IMG/VR virus record: IMGVR_UViG_648276669_000001
Length of the DNA stretch: 28,353 bases
Strand: one strand, 5' to 3'
Origin: a virus
Lineage: Duplodnaviria > Heunggongvirae > Uroviricota > Caudoviricetes
The notes under the pieces are model-generated. The model was not told the origin of the DNA, made no database searches, and was given only the letters and a program-made list of their open reading frames with translations. Shown in pieces: positions 1,538 through 25,774 of this stretch (the stretch's first letter is position 1; each line of letters starts with the position of its first letter). A program made the position numbers and the translations under genes.

Positions 1538-4279
1538 TTAATTTGCAAGCTTATTTTCCAGTTCTTCAATCCTCTTTATAATATTTTTCTGACGTATACC
1601 TAATGCAGCAATCATTAGATACTGTAATTCATCATTTCTGAATGCATAGCGTTCTCCTGCTTCATGCGTAATAGTTATAGCCTCACGAACAAGGTTACCT
1701 TCATCATCATAAACAGCTGGATCTGTATCTGTATATGCATCCCATCTGTCATAGCAGATCGCTCCGTATTTAAATGGATCAAGTCCATTCTCTCTGAATA
1801 TTTCCATTGCCCGTTGCACCGTAAGTCCGGCATGAAGTCTGGCATCAGCTCCCTTATTTTTTACACTATCAAGCCATTGATAAAAACCAATTTCATCAAC
1901 AAGAGCTAACCCAACCGCCTGCTCTTTATCGGAAAGAGTTCTGACTTCCGTTTTCTCTGTTGCATCAGATGTATTTATAGTTGCAGTCCCTGCGTAGACC
2001 TGAGAAAAGCGGTTAACGGACCTTCCAAGTGATACCTGGTTATCAGTTGTTGGCCTTAATGTCGTCGTCGCCCATGTCGATGTAGTATCTTTAGTCGCAG
2101 AAAATACTGTTACATTCCCCTGCTTAAGTCTGACGACACCTCCATCTGTAGAGGCAAGTATCAACTCACCAGCCGCAGATGGACAATCAGCAGCATGGAT
2201 ATCAATATAAGCACCACCCGCAGTATTCCCATCTTTAGAACGGAACTGCATACCTCGAAAGTTTGAGTCGAATACTGCTTTCGTACTTACCCATGAATTA
2301 TTGTCATGTCCGTAATCTGTATCAAACAGGTTAAGGTTATTTCCATAATTCAACTCGAGGGATTTGGTATACTCTCCAATGGCTTCGTCAAATATCGCAA
2401 TAGTAAATGAACCGTGCTCACGGTTAAAGGCGATATCAGTTCCAGCATAATATTGATGCGCGGTTCCGGTATACGGATCGGATTCTGCACCATGCACTGG
2501 ATGGTTGCCAAGAATATCAGACAGGTTTGCTATTCCAAACAGATGCTTATTTCTGCGAGTATAATCACCTGATTTATATGTTGCGCCTGAATCCCATTCA
2601 CCACTTGTCGCTGCAAGCGATGTTTTTAACCAATAAGACCTGTTTGTCGGAAGATTTCCCTTGTTATCACCAGTAACAATACTTACCCAATTTTTACCAC
2701 GATGGCTTACAACATCCCCTGCGCTTTTCCATACATCCATAGCACCACAGACAAGTTCATCACCTCTTATTGCCAGCCCTTCAGGCTCAAAGCTAACCGG
2801 AACTCCGATTTTAGAGTCAGAACCATTTAACTGAGTCTCTGTATAAAGTGATGCGGCAAGTGATACAGGAAATGAACGTATTAGCGTACCACCCATATCA
2901 TAAATCTGTACTGTCCTTACGCATCTTGCAGGAACGCCACCCCAAATTGTGTAAATATATCTGCTATCTGATGTAATACCCTGAAGTGTTGCACCATACT
3001 GACCTTTACCACGGACAAGTGGAACAGGACCATTAATCGGTCTAACTTTCATTGGGTTAGAAGAAGATTCCACTTCTTTGCGATCATATACGTATAAAAA
3101 GCGGCCAGTCCCAGCGTTTGATGTCGCAATTAATATGACATATCGCCCATCATTAGATACACAAATACTTGCCCGCTGCGCAAGGTTAATCAGATTATTA
3201 TCACCCGGCTCACCAAATACTCGGTAATGAGTTATATCTTCAGCAGATGTTGATGCCCCTTTCCATTTTGTCTTTGAATACCCCTTCCCTCCTAGAGAGG
3301 AACCAGTCTCAGCAATTGTTGTTGTAAACAGATATAGTTCACCGTTCTCTATTGTGGCAGAAAGATCTGAACCGTGACCAAGAGGCAATGGCTCTGTAAA
3401 TGTCACAACATAAAGAGTTGAACCATCGCTTGTATAGTGCCACTCACTGATCCTTGTGAGGGTGTCCGTTCCCCAGTTAGAACCTCCAACCTGTTGAGTG
3501 ATAAAAACCTTCTCAATACCTTCATGCCTTACACAAGCTATTCCCTGCAATGCATTTTGTGCATTCGCATATATAGTTGGCGCATTGATATCATCACCAA
3601 AATTCAGGGTCGCAAGTTTTCTTTGTCCAATGGAGAAACTTTGCATCGGCGGATTAACAGAAATGCGAACACCATTACTGATTAGAACACCATCACCGGA
3701 GAAGCGTGAAATATCTATTTTCGATGCATCAACTATAAACTCACCAGAAGGCACATGAACCAAACCACTATTTCCTGCGCTAGATGCGGCGTCAAGAAAA
3801 GCCTGTGTTGAATCTCTATTCGCAGAGTCATCCGCCCCCCACCCGCGAACGTCTTTATCATCCCGCCATCGTGCAATCTGTAATTCAGGGTATTTTTTAG
3901 CACCATCAGGATCTTCTAATTGCTGCCGTAACTGATCCGGGTCATACTTCAGCACATTCGGAAAATAGAACTGCTGCGTACCATAAGCATCGTACACAGC
4001 CATAGAGTGTCCTTTCACAGTAACGAATTTGGCAATCTGTCCGTTATATACAGGATATCCAGCAGCATTGATAACGATTGGTTGCGAAACAGGAACGTGA
4101 GAACCTTCTTCATTCTCTACATAAACCTGAATCTGGTTTTCAGGATTTACAGGGTCAGTGTCAATTTTACCGATATAAATTTTGCCATTAGCTACGGCTT
4201 TAAAAGAACGAGCCATAGTGAAGAGTTGCGAAGGCATCCCAATTACAACATTTGGAGTTATATCAGGCATATTAGTCAT
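1538..4279 (-). CDS. Tailspike protein: P22 gp9-type N-terminal head-binding domain fused to a non-P22 receptor-binding/enzymatic domain and a C-terminal intramolecular-chaperone-like domain
   Basis: Residues [62 protein letters not shown]...[31 protein letters not shown] match the P22 tailspike head-binding domain from memory. The rest is unrelated to the P22 endorhamnosidase; the C-terminus ([36 protein letters not shown]...) resembles the autoproteolytic chaperone domain of endosialidase/tail-fibre proteins. Start set at the internal ATG (4279) because the 48-codon upstream extension is AT-rich and has no counterpart in P22 gp9. Confidence 0.85.
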
Positions 4280-16576: not shown

Positions 16577-18742
16577 TTATTGAGGTGTCTCGGCTACTCC
16601 GCCGGAGGGGATTTGAACTTGACGCATAAGATTCGCGAAATCCATGCGTTGTGAATGAGTCTGGTCTGCATCTTTAAGAAGCAGCTCAGCGTTAGCACGA
16701 GCATCTTTGCTGCGCTGTTGCTGGAATTGACCTACTAGCTTGAGGTACTCACGCAGTTCTGCCTGCTTGTCGAGGTCCATATTGTTGAAGATTTCTGCAA
16801 TCTTCGCGGCGTTGAGTTGGTTTTGGGCTTCAACCTTGGCGGCTTCAACCTGAATCTGCGCCTGTTGGTTCTCTGCCTTGAGCAATTCAGCCTGACCTTG
16901 CAGAAGGATACCCTGCGCCTGAATTTGCTCTGCTGATGGCTGCTGCGGCTGCTGTTGAGCCTGCTGTACCATCTCCATCTCTTCAGGTGTTTCTGGTTTC
17001 TTCAGCCCCATCATCACCAGTTGCTTGTTCGCGTACTCTCGCATCATCTCGACGCCTTTACCGTCAAGCAGCGTGAAGTATTGCAGCATCAGCATCTGGA
17101 ACTCTGGAGTACCTTGCGGAACCTTGGTTAGCAACTCCTGAATCTCTGCGCGATTCTGTTCCTTCATGCTCTGGAAGGATGGTCCGACGTCTGTATAGCA
17201 CTCATAGCGACCGCGAATATCGTTGAGTGTGACCACATTGCCGGACTGGTAATCGACAACTTGCGCGTAGAGTTGAACGTCTTTCTCGCTACCATCTTCA
17301 AGTGTCAGCGTTACATGGCGAGGAACGTCATAAATATCGTTGACCATTGAGGCATAAATCTCGCCATCACGTCGCATTGCGGTAGCCAGGTTATCCTGAA
17401 ACACGTATGTCTCAAGGTCTGCCCGCATGTTCAGTTGATTGACGGTATCGAAAGCGACCTGAGAGTTTGCTGCCTGCGCATCCACGCCAAGACTAGCCAC
17501 CTCTTTCACTGCGTTGGTGGCAGCCTCAAGCATGTAAGCGTTGGCTTGCGGCACTTCAGGGTTTTCCATGTAGGAGATTGGACCAATCGGCAGGTCGTTA
17601 CCGTTTTCATCGGTCCTGTTCTGCAGATAGTACGGATAGTCATCATTTCCACCGTACATGTATTCGTAGCCTTCGATTTGCTCAGGGAAGAAGGTCGGTT
17701 TCTTCTTCGGTGAACGAGCAACAATATCGGCGTTGAATGACATGATCATGTTACGAAGGCGTTGACCGTCTTTCGTCAGCCTTACCACTCCTTCGTAGCA
17801 CTCCTTGTCACCAGCGAATGACCATTCGCCATACACTGGAACGATTGGAATATGCTCTCCGGCTATCTTCTCGCGGTCTTTCAGTATCTGTGTACAGGTG
17901 ACGATCGACTTATACACACGCCGACGCTTCACCTTACGCTCTGCTACCTTAATGAATCCACGATTAGCCAGGTCGTCGATAACGTCTTTAATATCCTGCT
18001 GGTAATAGCTGACCGGCTCACCTGTCAGCGGGTCGCGGTAGATGAAGACTTTCTCCTTCTTCTCTTCTACCTCGTAATACTCAGCGACGTAGACGACATC
18101 ATTCGATACCCACGGAAACAGCCATGTGTCGTTCGGATTCTGGAAAGATGGCAGGGTGTCAGGATCAATACCGTAATCCTCTGCGAACTCTTTCCAGCCA
18201 TTGCGTGACAAAGCGTTAATCACCGTGCAATGCTTAGCGTCGCTCTTATCCATCTGCTTGCTGTTGGCGTCCCATATGACGTGTGAGCAGGCTTCATGGA
18301 TTGGCAGGCGTCTGATTACCTGATTGTTGCTTGTTGGATCGTTGTCTTCGTACTGTGTGACCAGACGCCATGCACCAACGCCGGACTCTATCTGCTCACG
18401 AACGCCAACGTTAACGGCAATCTTTGCCGTGTTATGGCGCATATCAGTACGATACATTCCCATCAACACATCGGCAGCATCAGGATTAGCGCCGTCTTTT
18501 GGTCTGAAGAGAACGTCGATAGGGTTACGGCGCATCTCTGCGACCAGCTTCCTGACCACCGGGCGGACAACATCGAATTGTCCGCGATATTGCAGGGTGG
18601 TGTAGTTTGATAGCCAGTCATCCCATTGCGACACTCGGCTAAAATACAGGTCATTTGTCGCCTCGGTTCTGGCTTCATCGCTCGCCATCCAGTCCGCGTC
18701 AAACTTACACAGAATGGAATTGAGTCTGTTTTCGTCGGCCAT
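16577..18742 (-). CDS. Portal protein, P22 gp1 homolog
   Basis: 721 aa; [18 protein letters not shown]...[18 protein letters not shown]... and C-terminal coiled-coil barrel region match P22 portal from memory. Confidence 0.95.
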
Positions 18743-20242
18743 TTAAGTTCTCCGTGCGATGGGCCTGATTGGGGCTGGTATCTTTTTCTCTTTTGGTTTT
18801 TTGATGTCGCGCATCATTTTGGCGAAGCGGCGCATCATGTATGCATAGCGAACGGCTGAGAGAACGTCGTCGTTAAGCTTGACGATCTTCCCGTTTTCAT
18901 CACGGTGATAGAGGCGGAATTCCTCAAAGAATGGTTCACAGGTGTTGAATACCTTGAAGCGACCATCTAGCATCATGTCGCGCAATTCAGTGATTCCAGG
19001 CTCAACAGCATTACCGCCATCAGGCCATGTCGCATGCTCCTGCAACATCATAAATCCAGCGTCCGCATACTGCCCTTTGAGCTGCTCACCGCCGCCCTTC
19101 TCGTGCTGGTTTCCGTCATGGGGCCATGCGGTTGGCACTTTATGCGCCCATGGTTTAACGGCTCCCCACGCCTGAACGGCTGTCTTTTCTTTCGCCTTCC
19201 ACACGCGTGAAAGGTAGATTATGTCTGCGTCCTTATCCCACCAAAGCTGAACCTGCGCCTGTGGGTGATCCCATCCGAAATCCATCCCGCCAATTACGTA
19301 GAAGTGATCAGGACACTCGAACGGCTGACACTTAATCGTCTCTTCAGGTATCTGGAAGATTCGACCACTACCCATCGTAGGAATACCGCGAGCACGCGCC
19401 TCTCTCTCATGCTCGGGATAGGATGCGATGATTTGCTCTTTCTGCTCGTCGGTGTAGTGCTCAGCGTCGTAGATGGTCATGTTGACCACTTTCTGCGACT
19501 TGCTGGGATTCTTCAGGAACTTGGTAACAACGTCAGACATCCCCATCAGCGGGGTAAACGTCAGAATTGAGAATTGCCCGTATTTGTTGGTACGGGTAAG
19601 GCCTTCGCCATAAATGCTGTATGGTGGTTCTTCGTCAAACCACACGCCGTGGATTGTGTCACCCTGCCAGCGAGCACGGCCTTGCGAGTATGGCTTGAAG
19701 TAGCAGATTGAAATGCCATCTTCAACGCCATCAGCCGTGTGATGCTTAACCAGAAGATGATCAACAAGGTTCGGAAAGAAAGGAGACTTCTTCCAGCTAA
19801 TGATGTCTTCTTTCGGTATGGAACCGTAGCCAGGTTCACCATTCTCTTCGATACGACCGCACAGGATGCGTTGAGTCGTTTTGGTTACAGTCTCGTTTGT
19901 CTCGCCACCAATCCAGAAGACAACAGGCTCATAGAAACGCTTACCTTTCCACTCACCGCCATATTTACCATCAGCAGGATAGCCTTTTGTGCCCGGATAA
20001 CGCCCGGTAAGGTGAAACGCGACTTCAGCAGCACCAGTAAATGACTTACCAAGCTGGTTACCAGCCATAAAACATCGCTCTGGATAGTCATGCCCGGCGT
20101 CGATGAACTCACGCTGTTTGCTGTATGGCGTAAATTCATATAGCAGGTGTGTGTTCCGGTAGCTCTCTTCTTCTTCGAGTAGCTCGAGCAATTCGATTTG
20201 CTCTTCGTCGCTCAGGTTATCAAGAATCGCGTCCAGTTCCAC
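18743..20242 (-). CDS. Terminase large subunit, P22 gp2 homolog
   Basis: 499 aa, same length as P22 gp2, immediately downstream of gp3. Confidence 0.9.
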
Positions 20243-20708
20243 GGTTGAATAGCTCCTTGATACGAGAGCGTCGCTTATCGCGATCTCCCTTATCAGGTGT
20301 CACGTCTTCAACTTGCGACTGCTCTTTGAGGCCCAAATCACGGGCGATGATGTTAGCATTGAGAAGGTCAGCGGCTGCGCCAGAAAATTTCTGGTCGTAG
20401 ATGACCTGTTCTGCTCGCGTAACGACTTCAGATAAATCTTCTCGCAGGCGATATGTGCGCCATGTTTCAAGCGTCACATCAATGAACAGAGTGAGGCCGG
20501 TAATGGTCATCGCTCGCATCTTGGCGATAGGCTCTTGTATCACTTCACCCTGATACGAGAACGCCTTCATCTCCCATAGCGGGTTAGCTTCTACCCACTC
20601 GAAGTATTCACAACAAGCAGCCCACAGCGCCTCAGGCGATTCGAATTTAGGATTTCGCCCATGACTACTGCGGGCCTCCCAAAATCGGTTGCCCTTTGGT
20701 GCCGCCAT
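20220..20708 (-). CDS. Terminase small subunit, P22 gp3 (162 aa from the second ATG)
   Basis: [50 protein letters not shown]... appears identical to P22 gp3 as I recall it. Confidence 0.9.
20420..20441 (-). other. pac site (headful packaging recognition sequence) inside gene 3
   Basis: Minus-strand sequence GAAGATTTATCTGAAGTCGTTA matches the P22 pac consensus from memory and sits in the equivalent gp3 codons (REDLSEVVT). Confidence 0.65.
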
Positions 20709-20731
20709 ATTCATCTCACTTAATTGTCATT

Positions 20732-20911
20732 TCAGGTTGAGGACTCTTTCGTGCTTTCAATCAATGACTGCTTCAGCAATTCGAGTGTGCCAATCGCCTC
20801 GCATAAACTGATTTCACCATCGTAATCATGGATGACGCTTTCCATCCGCTCGTATAGCTCTTGAGTAATTGGGAATTTCTTCTCCTTACCCAAATTGATT
20901 ACGCGGCTCAC
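20732..20911 (-). CDS. Possible small ORF (59 aa, GTG start), hypothetical; below the ORF-track size cutoff
   Basis: My own translation: VSRVINLGKEKKFPITQELYERMESVIHDYDGEISLCEAIGTLELLKQSLIESTKESST; GGAG 6 nt upstream of GTG; start abuts the stop of the upstream 80-aa ORF. Confidence 0.3.
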   Translation of the reverse strand: MSRVINLGKEKKFPITQELYERMESVIHDYDGEISLCEAIGTLELLKQSLIESTKESST

Positions 20912-20912
20912 A

Positions 20913-21155
20913 TCATGCTCCGGTAGTGAACAGGTCTAACGCTTCCTTCGATTTACGCACCGCTTCGATAGTGCGAGATGTGAAGTCTGGATTTGCACCG
21001 CCATCGTTGTAGTGCAACTTGAACAATTCCAGTTTCAGTTGGTCGGCACTAATGAATGCAAAAGCTTCCTCTGCCGCTGAATTGTTCTTAGATAGCAGTC
21101 GGTAAATTTCTAACTTGAATTTCTGTTCTTCAGTCATGGGAATAATCTCTGCCAT
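20913..21155 (-). CDS. Hypothetical protein (80 aa)
   Basis: ORF with GGAG RBS about 9 nt upstream of ATG; no homolog recognised. Confidence 0.5.
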   Translation of the reverse strand: MAEIIPMTEEQKFKLEIYRLLSKNNSAAEEAFAFISADQLKLELFKLHYNDGGANPDFTSRTIEAVRKSKEALDLFTTGA

Positions 21156-21258
21156 TGTTGGCTCCGTTTATCCGTTAAAAGGGATATCAGTTAAGTTATC
21201 CCGTGTAGGGTATAAGCCATTATCAAAGCCACTCTGTAGGGAATGGCTTTTGTAATAA

Positions 21259-21615
21259 CTACTGTTCGCTTAGCTTCTGCTTCAGCAAGTAACCTTCGAG
21301 CATCCAGATTTTGTTTACAGCATTCTGCCGGGCAATCTTCCGACCAATTTCTGCATCAAAATTTTCCGGACTTGCACAGGCGCTCTCTCCGGTGACGGTG
21401 AAGCCATTCTTCAGCACCAGTACGCAGAAAGTCAGGAGGTCTGTAGATTTATGCGCTGTCCATGAATCGCCAACGCCCATATTGGCAGCACGAATGCCGT
21501 CATAAGCAGTAAAGAAATGCTCTTCAAGAATGATGCTTTCGATATATTGAAGCGTAACTCGCGGAGCGGTTTTGCCTTTCTCAACGATTTCTTTTTCGAT
21601 TTGCTGGTCGTTCAT
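21259..21615 (-). CDS. Gp49-like phage protein (Phage_gp49_66-type), function unknown
   Basis: 118 aa; family assignment by recall of the motif pattern only, not by search. Confidence 0.55.
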   Translation of the reverse strand: MNDQQIEKEIVEKGKTAPRVTLQYIESIILEEHFFTAYDGIRAANMGVGDSWTAHKSTDLLTFCVLVLKNGFTVTGESACASPENFDAEIGRKIARQNAVNKIWMLEGYLLKQKLSEQ

Positions 21616-21773
21616 AATTATGACCCTGTGGAGTGGTTGCTTGATTAGGATGTCTTTCCATCAGTCCGCCACCACAAAGAATCTTTTTTGCCATAAGGCA
21701 GGAGGTTCATCTTTCAGTGGCTGCCAGTGTTATTTCCCCACTTACTGGCTTGGGTTGTTTCGCTGTACTGCCG

Positions 21774-22316
21774 TTAATTAGTGAGTCCGGGGATTACGGT
21801 TTGCCCGTGCTGTTCAAGGCGTTCAATTCTCGCCAGTAGCTGAGGCTTCTTAATTTTTCCCCAGCGATTAAGCAGGCGACCTGACATGCTGGCAACATCC
21901 TTCTCTTTCATGTACTCCAGCATTACGGCATTTCTCTCTTCTTCAAATTGACGATGACCAACCTGAAGCATGGCGTACATCCAGTTAAATGCGTTGATGT
22001 AAGCAATTTTGATACGCATTGCTTCTTTTTTGGTGTAGGACATAACCAAAAGCATCAACCCATCCTTGCGGAGACGGTAGAATTTTTGCGGCTTACCATT
22101 CTGTAACTCATTGTTTTTATAGCAAAGCTCAAAGTTGAGCTTTGTATCAAACTCAGGAGGGCAAGCTTCTATGGTTCGTTCAATGTCACGAACTACGTTC
22201 TTCGGCAGCTTTCCAAATGCTTTTGCCACCATAAAAGAATCTGTAACCGGATCGTTGTTTGCCACAAAAATCAGATCTCGGAAATCAATGCCGTTAACGA
22301 TAGTTGGATAATGCAT
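21774..22316 (-). CDS. rha: Rha-family phage regulatory protein
   Basis: 180 aa; N-terminal region (IVNGIDFRDLIFVANNDPVTDSFMVAKAFGK..NVVRDIE) typical of Rha/ORF6N-domain proteins; AAGGTG RBS. Confidence 0.8.
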   Translation of the reverse strand: MHYPTIVNGIDFRDLIFVANNDPVTDSFMVAKAFGKLPKNVVRDIERTIEACPPEFDTKLNFELCYKNNELQNGKPQKFYRLRKDGLMLLVMSYTKKEAMRIKIAYINAFNWMYAMLQVGHRQFEEERNAVMLEYMKEKDVASMSGRLLNRWGKIKKPQLLARIERLEQHGQTVIPGLTN

Positions 22317-22461
22317 CAGTGATCACCTTTTAGTGATGAACCTTGTCACACAGGATTCCGGCCCACAGAAAGGCACCGATCACCAAACCGGCATCCTCAA
22401 GGGTCATCCTGAAAGGTTCTGTGTTCATAAGTCGCGCGTGTGAAGCGCGTTTACTGCGGAC

Positions 22462-22488
22462 ATAAAAAAGCCCCGCATCGCGAGGCTC
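22462..22488 (-). terminator. GC-rich hairpin plus T-run downstream of Rz/Rz1
   Basis: Plus strand aaaaaagccccgcatcgcgaggc. Confidence 0.5.
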
Positions 22489-22519
22489 ATTAAATGGACT
22501 TTGTGATTTGCAAAAAAAT

Positions 22520-22957
22520 TTATTTCAGGCACTGAGTCCTGATGTACTCCTGCAGGTAGTTAACCTGCGCGGTTATCCTGTCGATTCCACTTCGGAGACG
22601 GTAATAATTGAGTTCAGCATCTGCTGTAAGTCTTGGGCTTTCTCCATCGCCCATGCCGCTGGCTCCGGTCGTTGACTTTGCACAGGTGGCGGCGACTTGC
22701 AGGCGCTTACGCCCAGCAGAAACATCAGCACGGAGACTTTCGATAGTCGCGTTAGCATCAGCAAGCTCCTTTGTATATCTGGCATCGAGTTCTGCTACGT
22801 CACGTTGACGCTTCTGCATATCAGCGATGATGGATGTGGCTTTATCGCGCTGGTCTTTGTAGGCGATGGCGTTATCACGGTAATGATTAACAGCCCATGA
22901 CAGGCAGACGATGATGCAGATAACCAGAGCGGAGATAATCGCGGTTAACCGACTCAT
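22520..22957 (-). CDS. Rz: i-spanin Rz
   Basis: From the internal [37 protein letters not shown]..., closely matching lambda Rz from memory. Confidence 0.85.
22573..22758 (-). CDS. Rz1: o-spanin Rz1 (lipoprotein) embedded in the +1 frame of Rz
   Basis: [27 protein letters not shown]... with lipobox LLGVSAC and a Pro-rich segment, embedded in Rz as in lambda. Confidence 0.75.
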
Positions 22958-23045
22958 GACATCAACACCCCAACAGCCAGAAAACACGGCCACGCATCGT
23001 TGCCATTAAATGCGAGCAACGCTGCCATGAAAAAGCAAATCATGC

Positions 23046-23543
23046 TCATTGCTGCCCCCACAAACAGACTTCACGCTCAATCTCACGACGAGTCATCAGC
23101 CCTTTCCATTGCTTACCGCCAGCGTATGTCCAGCGACGTAGCTGGTCACATGCGCCTTTGATATCGCCCTGGTTTATTTTGCGAAGAAGCGTCGATGTTC
23201 TGAAATTGCCTGCGCCCACGTTGTAGACGAACGAGTAAAGAGCGCCGCGCGTTGTTTCCGGTATATCGACTTTGATGTACGGGTTAATTTGTCTGGCGAC
23301 CGTGGCAAGGTCTTTATTCAGGAGGGCTTTGCATTCTGCTTCGGTATACGTTTTACCGGGAATGATGTCTTTTCCGGTGTGTCCGTGACATACAGTCCAT
23401 ACACCAACGATATCTTTATATGGTATGTAGCTGACGCCTTCCAGACCATCGTTACCACTTGGGCCAGTGATTAACACAGATGCTATAGCAATAGCCCCGC
23501 CACCAATAGCCGCAGCAACGGCTTTTCGTAATGATGGAGGCAT
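23046..23543 (-). CDS. SAR endolysin (lysozyme, phage 21 R21 type)
   Basis: N-terminal signal-anchor-release segment [20 protein letters not shown] followed by a T4-lysozyme-like catalytic region. Confidence 0.9.
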
Positions 23544-23758
23544 TATTCACCTCTCGCAGCCTTTCTTCTGTCTTCTCTGATTTTGAAGTACAGATTTGTC
23601 AGATAGGTGAGAAAGCCCAACACAAGGCTTCCAAGCACTCCAATCGCAGCCCACTGTGATGGACTGACCTGATCCAACCACTGCAAAAACCAGTATCCCG
23701 CACTACCAGCGGATGTTCCGTAAGCAATGCCAGTTGAGATTTTGTCCATTGATTTCAT
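23543..23758 (-). CDS. S: Pinholin S21 with dual start motif (S21-71 at 23758, S21-68 at 23749)
   Basis: [71 protein letters not shown] matches phage 21 S21 from memory. Confidence 0.9.
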
Positions 23759-24046
23759 AGCAACGCCTCCGCCAGTAACGGATTGCGTAGTTCTTATATT
23801 GGGAAGGGGAAAAGAAGGCCGCAGCGTAACTATCGCTGATGAGTTCAGGATAGTCAGTGGCTACGGCTCAGTTTGGGTTGTGCTGTTGCTGGGCGGCGAT
23901 GACGCCTGTACGCATTTGTTGATCCGGTTCTGCTTCCGGTATTCGCTTAATTCAGCACAACGGAAAGAGCATTTATGGCTCGCATCGCGGGAAAAAGCCC
24001 ACGGTAGAGAGTCGAACTCTACAAATGCTCTTACCTGTTGCACAGA

Positions 24047-24108
24047 TATAAAAAATCCCGAAACCGTTATGCAGGCTCTAACTATTACCTGCGAACTGTT
24101 TCGGGATT
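24047..24108 (-). terminator. tR' terminator (end of the lambda-type 6S RNA)
   Basis: Minus-strand AATCCCGAAAC...GGTTTCGGGATTTTTTAT is recognisable as the lambda tR' hairpin. Confidence 0.75.
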
Positions 24109-24243
24109 GCATTTTGCAGACCTCTCAGCCTGCGATGGTTGGAGTTCCAGACGATACGTCGAAGTGACCAACTAGGCGGAATCGGTAGTAAGCGCCGCCT
24201 CTTTTCATCTCACTACCACAACGAGCGAATTAACCCATCGTTG
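24048..24243 (-). ncRNA. 6S late leader RNA (PR' transcript to tR', about 194 nt) including the qut region
   Basis: Near-identity to the lambda PR'-tR' segment by recall (…TGACCCAACGATGGGTTAATTCGCTCGTTGTGGTAGTGAGATGAAAAGAGGCGGCGC…). Confidence 0.65.
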
Positions 24244-24280
24244 GGTCAAATTTACCCAACTTTATTCAAATAGTCAATAT
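24244..24280 (-). promoter_or_regulatory. Late promoter PR' (-35 TTGACT, -10 TAAATT) with Q-utilisation site
   Basis: Minus-strand TTGACTATTTGAATAAAGTTGGGTAAATT matches lambda PR' with 17 bp spacing. Confidence 0.7.
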
Positions 24281-24319
24281 TATGCCGTTAATATGTTGCC
24301 ATCCGTGGCAATCATGCTG

Positions 24320-24943
24320 TTAACGTGTGACCGCATTCAAAATGTTGTCTGCGATTGACTCTTCCTTGTGGCATTGCACGACCAGAGCGTCATACAGCGG
24401 CTTAACAGTGCGTGACCAGGTGGGTTGAGTAAGGTTTGGGATTAGCATCGTTACAGCGCGATATGCGGCGCTTGCTGGCATCCTGGAATAGCCGACTCCT
24501 TTGCATCTTCCGCACTCTTTCTCAACAACTCTCCCCCATTGCTCTGTTTTGGCTATATCAACCGCACGGCCTGTACCGTGGCAATCTCTGCATCTTGCGC
24601 CCGGCGTCGCGGCACTACGGCAATAATCCGCATAAGCGAATGTTGCGAGCACTTGCAGTACCTTTGCCTTAGTATTTCCTTCAAGCTTTGCAACGCCACG
24701 GTATTTCCCCGATACCTTGTGTGCAAATTGCATCAGATAGTTGATAGCCTTTTGTTTGTCGCTCTGGCTGAGTTCGTGCTTACCACAGAATGCAGCCATT
24801 CCGAATCCGGCTTGTGATTGCGCCATCCCCATAGCAGCCATCACATCAGTACCGGAAAGAGAGTCAGAAGCCGTAGCCCGTGGTGAGTCGCTCATCATCG
24901 GGCTTTTTGGCGAATGAAATTTAGCTACACTTTCGAGTCTCAT
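24320..24943 (-). CDS. Q: Late antiterminator Q (lambda type)
   Basis: 207 aa; MRLESVAKFHSPKSPMMSDSPRATASDSLSGTDVMAAMGMAQSQAGFGMAAFCGKHEL... matches lambda Q from memory. Confidence 0.95.
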   Translation of the reverse strand: MRLESVAKFHSPKSPMMSDSPRATASDSLSGTDVMAAMGMAQSQAGFGMAAFCGKHELSQSDKQKAINYLMQFAHKVSGKYRGVAKLEGNTKAKVLQVLATFAYADYCRSAATPGARCRDCHGTGRAVDIAKTEQWGRVVEKECGRCKGVGYSRMPASAAYRAVTMLIPNLTQPTWSRTVKPLYDALVVQCHKEESIADNILNAVTR

Positions 24944-25128
24944 CGTCTTCCCTTTTTGCCTGGCGTGACCATCAGGACGCCGTTAACTATTACGTGACGC
25001 TCGCCTTTGCTGTCTCGGTTGTACTTGAGCACTGTTCCTCTTGCGCAGGAAAGCATCCTTGCCACTTCGGTCTGATTGCCTCGTGTCTGGATAAGAAGCT
25101 CTGGTATCGTTTGAATTGTGGCGTTCAT
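24940..25128 (-). CDS. ninH: NinH-like small DNA-binding protein
   Basis: 62 aa; TIPELLIQTRGNQTEVARMLSCARGTVLKY resembles lambda NinH; start overlaps the RusA stop and its stop overlaps the Q start. Confidence 0.75.
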   Translation of the reverse strand: MNATIQTIPELLIQTRGNQTEVARMLSCARGTVLKYNRDSKGERHVIVNGVLMVTPGKKGRR

Positions 25129-25487
25129 ACGTTCTCCAGTTCGGTGATTTTTATTCCAAGCCTTCCGCCTGGTACTTTCACGCCACGAATTACGCGAATG
25201 TCATCGAATTGCTCGTCGTCTTCTGCAAATCCGGCGTGGATAAGGGAGTCGAGTAAACCTTTCAGGATGTTATCGAGGTCGCGGCGGCGGGAGTCTGGAA
25301 CGTCTGCGATGACTTTGATGCGGAGTCGTGATTTGGTGAAAATATCTAACTTGAGTTGGCGGATTATTTGCTGTACATCTTTTCGGTATTTCTGGCCTTT
25401 ATCGCTGATGTAGTATTGGCTTCCCCGTCTTCGCCAGTAGGTGTTCAGCGACGGCGGATATGGAAGCACAAACTGATATTCGTTCAT
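25125..25487 (-). CDS. rusA: RusA-family Holliday junction resolvase
   Basis: 120 aa; motifs LPYPPSLNTYW and DSRRRDLDNILKGLLDSL resemble RusA. Confidence 0.85.
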   Translation of the reverse strand: MNEYQFVLPYPPSLNTYWRRRGSQYYISDKGQKYRKDVQQIIRQLKLDIFTKSRLRIKVIADVPDSRRRDLDNILKGLLDSLIHAGFAEDDEQFDDIRVIRGVKVPGGRLGIKITELENV

Positions 25488-25774
25488 GACTTAATCTTCC
25501 CCTCCTTCAGCAGTATCGCCTGCGTCCTGATCACGCCTTCGAGGTGGTAAAGTCTGGCGTCTTTGTTGTCGAGATTATGGGTGCGTCGGTCGATTTCATC
25601 GTGACACGCGCTACAAGCCCATGCACCGTTCAGGTCGTCAGGCTTCATTCCAGTTCCGCAAATTCCAGCCATCCGGTAATGTGCCAGAACTGTAGTTTCA
25701 GGATTGCCATTGCATATGCCGTAAATACGTACCTGGCATTCTCTGCCGCGCGCTTCTTTGCGTAGGTTAGCCAT
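25484..25774 (-). CDS. YbcO-like (DUF1364) Cys/His-rich putative nuclease
   Basis: From the internal ATG with AGGA RBS: MANLRKEARGRECQVRIYGICNGNPETTVLAHYR...CSACHDEIDRRTH resembles DLP12 YbcO as I recall it. Confidence 0.7.
   Translation of the reverse strand: MANLRKEARGRECQVRIYGICNGNPETTVLAHYRMAGICGTGMKPDDLNGAWACSACHDEIDRRTHNLDNKDARLYHLEGVIRTQAILLKEGKIKS

Follow-up and report, generated by a model that had tools for sequence, protein, structure and literature searches.

Positions 20715 to 22519 of IMG/VR virus record IMGVR_UViG_648276669_000001, which lie between the lysis gene Rz and the small terminase gene, are read here as an ordinary accessory stretch within the late operon of an Escherichia coli prophage of P22-like (Lederbergvirus) type, and the full mechanism proposed below is considered quite likely. 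All coordinates refer to the window, that is, the whole stretch of 28,353 nucleotides (nt) that was analysed, and all of the genes discussed are encoded on its minus strand. The segment would consist of three exchangeable cassettes. The first comprises an intrinsic terminator, a structured leader RNA of ~135 nt and the rha gene, the second a gene of the Acb4 family with a conserved hairpin after its stop codon, and the third the genes orf80 and orf59c, coding for conserved small proteins. To judge by its sequence, the region is of the standard P22/Sf6/HK620 type and already annotated, and the gene cluster itself offers little that is new. A published function, that of a sponge acting against the cyclic-oligonucleotide-based antiphage signalling system (CBASS), can now be attached to the 'Gp49 family' gene, and the leader RNA is worth following up, given that its covariation is unusually clear, that it is absent from Rfam and that many Shiga-toxin phages have it in front of antirepressor-type genes. 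The features of the segment, in the direction of transcription, are as follows (aa, amino acids; bp, base pairs; ORF, open reading frame):

22468-22488, minus strand: intrinsic terminator, GAGCCTCGC-GAT-GCGGGGCTT followed by a T-run; 9 bp, six of them G-C; upstream edge of the rha cassette
22313-22451, minus strand: structured leader RNA of ~135 nt, predicted, ending at the rha start codon; elements H1, PK, P2, P3 and P5+P4; covers the '32-aa ORF'
21774-22316, minus strand: rha, 180 aa; Phage_pRha domain at residues 25-113, ORF11CD3 domain at residues 125-176
21616-21773, minus strand: IG1, conserved non-coding spacer from rha to the acb4-like gene; contains the '21-aa ORF'
21259-21615, minus strand: acb4-like gene (Gp49 / Sf6 gene 66 family), 118 aa, predicted cyclic-dinucleotide sponge
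21215-21260, minus strand: 18-bp hairpin, beginning inside the acb4 stop codon; in acb4-plus and acb4-minus alleles
21177-21202, minus strand: second, terminator-like hairpin, GGGATA...TATCCC then TTTT; upstream of orf80
20913-21155, minus strand: orf80 (DUF2560; P22 Orf80 / Sf6 gp67 / HK620 HkbM), PF10834 at 124 bits
20732-20911, minus strand: orf59c (P22 Orf59c / Sf6 gp68 / HK620 HkbN), 59 aa, GTG start, phrog_3546 at E 8.5e-42

Gene content and transcription of the segment

The four ORFs between Rz and gene 3, namely rha, the Gp49-like gene, orf80 and orf59c, are real genes. Variable sites in all four are most frequent at codon position 3, followed by position 1 and then position 2 (positions 1/2/3: Rha 37/18/105, Gp49-like 21/15/74, Orf80 45/26/63, Orf59c 13/5/17), and this coding pattern, together with the Pfam and PHROG matches, bears out an earlier note on this DNA which had recognised Rha, Gp49-like, 80-aa and 59-aa GTG-start products here. 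The same note took small ORFs of the segment to be unannotated and the ~1.8 kilobases (kb) between Rz and gene 3 to be unusual relative to P22, which it described as packing the lysis genes close to gene 3. None of this stands. The segment has a 100% identical counterpart in an E. coli MS 16-3 prophage, where RefSeq annotates all four genes, as a Rha family transcriptional regulator, a Gp49 family protein, a DUF2560 family protein and a hypothetical protein. In P22 (BK000583), 2,035 bp separate the end of gene 15 (Rz) at 39425 from the start of gene 3 at 41461, and they contain rha, orf25, orf80 and orf59c. Genes 65, 66, 67 and 68 occupy the equivalent position from Rz to the terminase in Sf6, Rha, Gp49 and DUF2560 proteins are encoded between Rz and the terminase in Klebsiella phage phiKp_30, and HK620-type phages also carry the region.

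The hairpin after Rz is a true intrinsic terminator, as the earlier note had suspected. Of 81 unique copies of the cassette, at least 58 have a hairpin and T-run at this place; their stems represent no fewer than 12 different compensating sequences, and the structure, conserved amid this sequence change, is also kept across 10 genera. The genes around the segment, in minus-strand order from the Q-type antitermination gene to the portal gene, are:

24320-24943, minus strand: Q-type antitermination gene
23543-23758, minus strand: class II holin
23046-23543, minus strand: lysozyme
22520-22993, minus strand: Rz, with its stop at 22520
22573-22785, minus strand: Rz1
20220-20714, minus strand: small terminase gp3 (gene 3), start 20714/20708
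18743-20242, minus strand: large terminase
16577-18742, minus strand: portal

A scan of the gene strand from 22520 to 20714 detected no sigma-70-like promoter, and the only promoter-like site on this strand in 20000-25500 is situated at 24249-24277, just downstream of Q. This minus-strand site (TTGACT-17-TAAATT) is likely a late promoter, and lambdoid late promoters are located just downstream of Q. The interval from Q to the holin gene is ~560 bp long and, unlike in Sf6, contains no tRNA genes; none were found anywhere in the window. Transcription from the late promoter would most likely cross the segment toward genes 3, 2 and the portal gene, while only polymerase lacking the Q modification would be stopped at the terminator, and rha would consequently be made late only. 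Late transcription modified by Q would thus read through the terminator at 22468-22488. In the P22 record, the late terminator is annotated as antiterminated by the gene 23 protein, permitting full late transcription. With no promoter found inside the segment, and with genes 3, 2 and portal, all essential, situated downstream of it, the hairpin after Rz is no argument for a separate unit, and the earlier suggestion that these genes are transcribed apart from the late operon is not upheld. P22 rha is likewise described as a late-operon gene, the product of which harms lytic growth without integration host factor (IHF) (PMC4936722).

The gene content of the region is mosaic. Among 82 related loci, the block IG1-acb4-IG2-orf80 is found in 61-65%, rha in 20% and orf59c in 17%, and an allele from which acb4 is cleanly missing occurs in P22 and several metagenomic phages. 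Only five of 5,426 complete E. coli genomes contain at least 80% of the exact 2-kb arrangement, and some part of it is found in 3,016 of the 5,426. A two-sided 'linker' model for the rha cassette was rejected, its downstream flank being conserved in just 24 of 81 copies.

The leader RNA and rha

The sequence upstream of rha is, on the evidence of compensatory changes, a structured RNA, one helix of which buries the Shine-Dalgarno sequence. H1 is a small GCGC hairpin and PK a loop-to-3' pairing, in which the H1 loop UCNCAC pairs with GUGN'GA ~90 nt downstream; pair 12-107 of PK is GC in 18, UA in seven and AU in six sequences. A further pairing joins CACAGAA to UUCUGUG, with pair 31-89 being UA in 15, AU in 14 and CG in three sequences, and the covarying paired positions, which are 60-95 nt apart, keep Watson-Crick pairing. 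Across an alignment of 32 sequences, 97.3% of cells are paired (24-49% in slid controls), seven pairs have changed on both sides and the covariation score was reached by 0 of 500 shuffles. A covariance model built from this set (R1) scores 144 bits at 22313-22451 and also retrieved divergent copies on which it had not been trained, upstream of the rha genes of P22 (59.7 bits, E ~1e-12) and phiKp_30 (48 bits, E ~1e-10), both of which carry compensating changes, along with ~25 further untrained copies.

The untrained copies fall into about six sequence classes, all with a helix of 17-20 bp formed by the segment after P2 and a segment ending in the Shine-Dalgarno sequence. In the last 5 bp of this P5+P4 helix, CCUUU is paired with the rha Shine-Dalgarno sequence AAAGG. 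The sequence of the helix differs by class (GGAUGA..CCUUG in the window, AGAAAGU..GAGCC in another class and CUUUGGAAUG in P22). Cognate duplexes have energies of -19 to -29 kcal/mol, compared with ~-10 to -16 when the window-type family is cross-paired in either direction, and P22-type 5' segments give -19 with foreign partners versus -25 with their own. P2 and PK cross the P4/P5 helix, and the element would therefore form either a pseudoknot or alternative folds.

The helix would bury the rha Shine-Dalgarno sequence and so keep translation low or conditional, which would suit a potentially toxic DNA-binding regulator such as Rha, and P2 together with PK could open it through a pseudoknot or an alternative fold. 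Translational control of rha by the leader is suggested by this arrangement. Going further, we tentatively propose, with rather less than even confidence, that the leader is a new regulatory RNA of enterobacterial lambdoid and P22-like phages, in which the alternative states P2+PK and P4+P5 gate the late translation of Rha/Ant/KilA-N-type proteins, including that of the lysis-cassette ant gene of Shiga-toxin phages. Candidate gating signals would be an RNA acting in trans, a protein, a metabolite, temperature or the mode of transcription. If the leader does control translation, it would provide a testable handle on the timing of poorly understood, potentially toxic regulators.

The conserved leader sequence always stops ~16 nt short of the start codon of a gene of 130-250 aa. 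The genes in this position code for Rha, KilA-N, P22_AR_N (Ant) or HNH_3 proteins, some with an ORF11CD3 or P63C tail. An HNH_3 endonuclease gene follows the leader on the IMG/VR contigs L092, L103, L117 and L144, and the leader therefore marks a gene slot rather than one protein family. It is present in 305 phage records and in 806 of the 5,426 complete E. coli genomes (15%), with up to eight copies in O157:H7 strains. A scan of one genome per species located it in Raoultella, Entomohabitans, Erwinia, Siccibacter and Serratia, as well as in Citrobacter, Enterobacter, Pantoea, Scandinavium and Yersinia pestis. In phage 933W (L085, 1476-2179) and many Stx1/Stx2 phage records the leader precedes ant, and the 933W leader and ant cassette is located between R and Rz, inside the lysis cassette, without a strong upstream terminator. 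Two copies of different classes, ~1.4-2.9 kb apart, occur on three of the sequences, which suggests tandem regulator cassettes:

L043: leader copies at 2060-2201 and 3432-3570
L075: leader copies at 815-956 and 2184-2322
L054: leader copies at 1187-1320 and 4057-4193

When Rfam was searched at permissive thresholds, the best match was asX2, on the opposite strand and at 26.5 bits against a gathering threshold of 70, and nothing else had E < 1. The leader RNA has apparently not been described before.

The leader also accounts for spurious calls of small ORFs in this region. ORFs of 32 aa (22330-22428) and 21 aa (21645-21710) had been put forward in the earlier note as possible genes in the gaps before rha and the Gp49-like gene; both exist mechanically as open frames, and both were rejected as genes on account of start loss, stop gain and frameshifts in relatives. 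The 32-aa ORF matches phrog_16173 (E 2e-23) and its peptide was found by tblastn in 158 phage records. Its ATG is, however, lost in 933W and PA36, where Cys27 is a TGA stop, and is replaced by CTG in sal4 and ST64B, while a single nucleotide is deleted in ST64B and likewise in one Klebsiella phage. Despite these frame-breaking changes, DNA identity across this region is ~90%. The ORF has no Shine-Dalgarno sequence. Sf6 gp65, considered as a relative, proved to be unrelated. In the 21-aa ORF, a run of A residues varies in length from five to eight among close relatives, shifting the frame, and GAAAG directly abuts the ATG, with no spaced Shine-Dalgarno sequence.

The rha product is predicted to be a DNA-binding regulator of the Rha family, with both family models matched above their cutoffs (PF09669, 77 bits against 29.9; TIGR02681, 84.8 bits against 45.95), along with PF10549 (91 bits) and phrog_518 (E 8e-81). 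Among the products of the segment, Rha alone had a match in the NCBIfam scan, and searches of PDB with the sequences of Rha, Orf80 and Orf59c returned nothing below E 0.3. The Rha phenotype described for phi80 and P22, as PMC4936722 relates it from Henthorn and Friedman (1995), is a block of phage growth in IHF-defective hosts. No IHF consensus WATCAANNNNTTR (up to one mismatch) was found in 22250-22540. In P22 (L001, the reverse complement of BK000583; region 2080-2220), the GTG annotated as the start of rha (L001:2150; 201 aa) falls inside the leader RNA. An internal ATG at L001:2081, with GAAGAAGG upstream, yields MNELIANHDFDFRQL..., which aligns with the N-terminus of the window Rha, and P22 Rha is therefore probably ~178 aa long. 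The annotated start is thus probably over-extended, an error which the presence of the leader would explain.

The Acb4-family gene and the small genes downstream

The Gp49-like protein is, by sequence and predicted fold, a member of the Acb4 family. It matches PF13876 at 116.6 bits (cutoff 27; E 7e-34) over the whole model (1-82), and this domain is carried by 120 of 120 homologs among the matches listed. Chang et al. found that anti-CBASS 4 (Acb4) of Bacillus phage SPO1 sequesters 3'3'-cGAMP and related CBASS signals as a tetrameric sponge, and that PF13876 is the Acb4 family, with 1,331 homologs (PMC11722364). Binding of 3'3'-cGAMP was observed for eight of eight purified and diverse homologs, cAA was bound in addition by those whose phages infect Gram-negative hosts, none bound cGG, and specificity is reported to differ among homologs (PMC11722364). 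SPO1 Acb4 is a homotetramer with four binding sites between protomers, and all eight homologs were modelled as tetramers (PMC11722364). Table S3 of the same paper lists an E. coli protein, A0A0C5F232, which is one residue off the window protein (P22 versus L22), as well as Sf6 gp66.

Matches to the structure of SPO1 Acb4 (PDB 9e4w) were obtained with the single sequence (E 0.006) and with a profile of 52 homologs (E 4e-5, the runner-up being at 0.14). The AlphaFold2 model (pLDDT 82, from the predicted local distance difference test) contains the elements H3-12, H22-28, E29-36, H37-44, H56-60, E61-68, E73-79 and H88-116, which correspond to the Acb4 protomer fold, in which helices at the N-terminus and a long helical region at the C-terminus flank three antiparallel strands. 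In a Foldseek search with this model, the top 13 matches were all chains of 9e4w (probability 1.0, template modelling scores of 0.51/0.63-0.73), and the next match had E 0.26. When the SPO1 ligand pocket (K36, F48, E49, V56, Y57, F62, N63, I66, T70 and K81) was compared, F48, F62 and I66 were found to be retained as F72, F86 and I90. Homologs of the protein are 112-135 aa long. Their N- and C-terminal parts are highly conserved, and between the two lies a hypervariable insert at residues ~38-58 (window ~21440-21500), in which column identity drops to 0.69. The gene is present in 527 of the 5,426 complete E. coli genomes (~10%), in prophages.

The product would most likely form a homotetramer soaking up CBASS cyclic dinucleotides such as 3'3'-cGAMP, leaving the CBASS effector of the host untriggered during late infection; both the ligand binding and the anti-CBASS action are predicted by analogy with the characterised homologs. 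The guess in the earlier note that this is an anti-defence position was right for one gene, the Gp49-like one, because PF13876 is the published Acb4 family. PADLOC returned no meaningful defence match for the five products searched, the only match being one of 24 residues of Orf59c to a fragment of JetB (E 0.0078).

The spacers on either side of the acb4-like gene are both 98% conserved, compared with 85-94% at the third codon positions of their neighbours. For IG1, column identity is 98.0% across 47 unique relatives versus 85% at the third codon positions of the neighbouring gene, and P22, a phage without acb4, retains the 5' part of this spacer. No intact ORF and no promoter match were found in IG1, and it was rejected as a structured RNA (fold z -0.64, no covariation). 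The second spacer, IG2, folds with z -4.91 against shuffles (21145-21265). Across alleles, its 18-bp hairpin has 97% of cells paired, compared with 32-55% when slid, and four pairs have changed on both sides, while the hairpin at 21177-21202 is found in most alleles and deleted in a few. The two hairpins may serve in processing, stability or partial termination before orf80. At the acb4-less site of P22 (L001 ~1019-1279), an apparently unannotated ORF of ~86 aa, read by eye, is oriented opposite to rha and adjoins a two-way terminator-like hairpin, AAAAAAGCCGCTTACTTAGCGGCTT.

Orf80 and Orf59c are, from their sequences, conserved small proteins that would be expressed late. They are encoded immediately upstream of the terminase genes and are found with different terminase types. 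The Orf80 family is narrow and comprises 74 clusters, every source-named one of which is from the Enterobacterales. Its model (pLDDT 78) consists of four helices, and a Foldseek search of it against PDB gave no fold match (best E 2.7). In a profile search of PDB, the best match was ribosomal protein L29 (E 0.17), which was judged to be due to chance. PF21825 (Sequestin) is a new sponge family often fused to Acb4 (PMC12265669). DUF2560 was rejected as a relative of this family, as 0 of 32 members match at E <= 10. The orf59c gene is annotated in P22, Sf6 and RefSeq, and differs from Sf6 gp68 by a one-codon in-frame indel. Its GTG start, located one base past the orf80 stop codon, is preceded by GGAG 6 nt upstream. 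Searches of Pfam, PADLOC and PDB with the Orf59c sequence gave no informative match, and the literature search on DUF2560, orf59c and orf80 likewise returned nothing informative.

Alternative readings and known systems

The segment could instead be a moron-like insert, with its own transcription between the Rz terminator and the terminase genes and with genes for anti-defence or lysogenic conversion whose expression would not depend on the late operon. A moron is marked by separate expression from its own promoter and terminator. The terminator after Rz is real, terminator-like hairpins follow acb4, one gene is of an anti-CBASS family and the G+C content of the segment (0.41-0.47) is below that of its flanks (0.50-0.55), but no promoter-like site is evident on the gene strand of the segment or before the essential packaging genes downstream. 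With an equivalent region in P22, Sf6 and HK620-type phages, a late-operon rha in P22 (PMC4936722) and, in 933W, a leader and ant cassette that sits within the lysis genes without a terminator, this reading is very unlikely. The sequence before rha could also be a DNA boundary or linker for homologous cassette exchange, or a real gene for a small protein (PHROG 16173 / ORF41-type, 63 aa). Its occurrence before unrelated genes resembles that of mosaic junctions, and the ORF matching phrog_16173 is annotated in a few records; conservation of the upstream flank alone, however, and distant pairs that covary with three pair types at two positions are not what a linker would lead one to expect, and a cognate helix of 17-20 bp is preserved in three sequence families despite differences in its sequence. 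Given the start losses, the premature stop and the frameshifts, the region cannot encode a conserved protein, and the linker or protein reading is on the whole quite unlikely.

Several points count against the reading preferred here, that of a late-operon segment with an RNA-controlled rha and an anti-CBASS sponge gene. The step of read-through by Q-modified polymerase is carried over from what is generally known of late transcription in lambdoid phages. The core of the leader is in large part near-invariant, over ~100 nt in many copies, as a linker might also be, and its single-sequence fold is not unusually stable (z -1.15). The search patterns fixed parts of P4 and P5, and a second, model-based alignment (A6), in which pairing is 97.5%, 11 of 19 pairs have changed on both sides and P4 is 99.5% paired, was fitted to the structure under test. 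The searches with Orf80 and Orf59c yielded no function. In the Acb4-like protein, six pocket positions differ from SPO1 (K36->L60, E49->T73, V56->C80, Y57->A81, N63->D87, which is a backbone contact, and T70->I94). Among the replaced residues, K36 and E49 read guanine and Y57 and T70 contact phosphate, and with its ligand contacts only partly conserved the homolog may therefore differ in ligand range. These replacements, together with the hypervariable insert of the window clade, would also fit a protein with the Acb4 fold but another role, for example RNA binding through a core like that of double-stranded RNA-binding domains, which the Acb4 monomer resembles, some homologs carrying extensions (PMC11722364). 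Such a role is nevertheless unlikely, considering that 3'3'-cGAMP was bound by every one of the diverse homologs assayed, those of Gram-negative-host phages included, that a near-identical E. coli protein and Sf6 gp66 stand in the family table (PMC11722364), and that F72, F86 and I90, which are aromatic and hydrophobic residues of the pocket, have been retained.

The late-operon segment of the window shares its position, orientation and gene families with the corresponding region of P22, Sf6 and HK620 (hkbM/hkbN). As in P22, rha follows Rz, and the small terminase gene is immediately preceded by orf80 (DUF2560) and orf59c, with DNA identity to P22 of 81-89% across orf80 and the C-terminal two thirds of rha. 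Unlike either P22 or Sf6 alone, the window joins rha, a P22 feature, with gene 66/acb4, a feature of Sf6; in P22, acb4 is cleanly deleted and a different insert is found in its place. The window Rha belongs to the same Pfam/TIGRFAM family as Rha of phi80 and P22, has the late-operon position of P22 rha and is ~89% identical in DNA to P22 in its C-terminal part, whereas the N-terminal third of the gene and the leader are of a different sequence class. With SPO1 Acb4 (9e4w), the Gp49-like protein has in common its Pfam family, a three-strand core flanked by helices, its small size, the residues F48, F62 and I66 and its encoding by a phage, but it differs in length (118 versus 96 aa), in the insert at residues ~38-58 and in sequence (~20-25% identity).

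The closest described system to the leader is isrK-orf45-anrP of the Salmonella prophage Gifsy-1, in which read-through of a terminator produces a translationally inactive leader before an antirepressor-like gene (Hershko-Shalev et al. 2016; PMC4825925). In both, a Rho-independent terminator is followed by a structured untranslated leader and then by an antirepressor-type gene, the leader 'ORF' is conserved as nucleotides and not as amino acids, and alternative helices involve a ribosome-binding site. In Gifsy-1, however, the upstream unit is a small RNA from a late promoter and a translated upstream ORF couples to anrP, while in the window Rz takes the upstream place, a conserved upstream ORF is absent and it is the Shine-Dalgarno sequence of rha itself that is paired. 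Homology between the two leaders was rejected, with no covariance-model match and no sequence similarity, and AnrP showed no similarity to the window Rha or 933W Ant. The RNAs named as controlling antirepressors in a 2025 review of phage small RNAs are sar, c4, 24B_1 and IsrK, and no element like the leader is among them (PMC12197685). The predicted control of rha resembles that of P22 sar-ant and P1/P7 c4-ant in acting at the level of RNA on translation initiation of antirepressor-type genes (PMC12197685), but P22 sar and P1/P7 c4 are antisense RNAs acting in trans, whereas the leader in the window is, to judge by its covariation, folded in cis.

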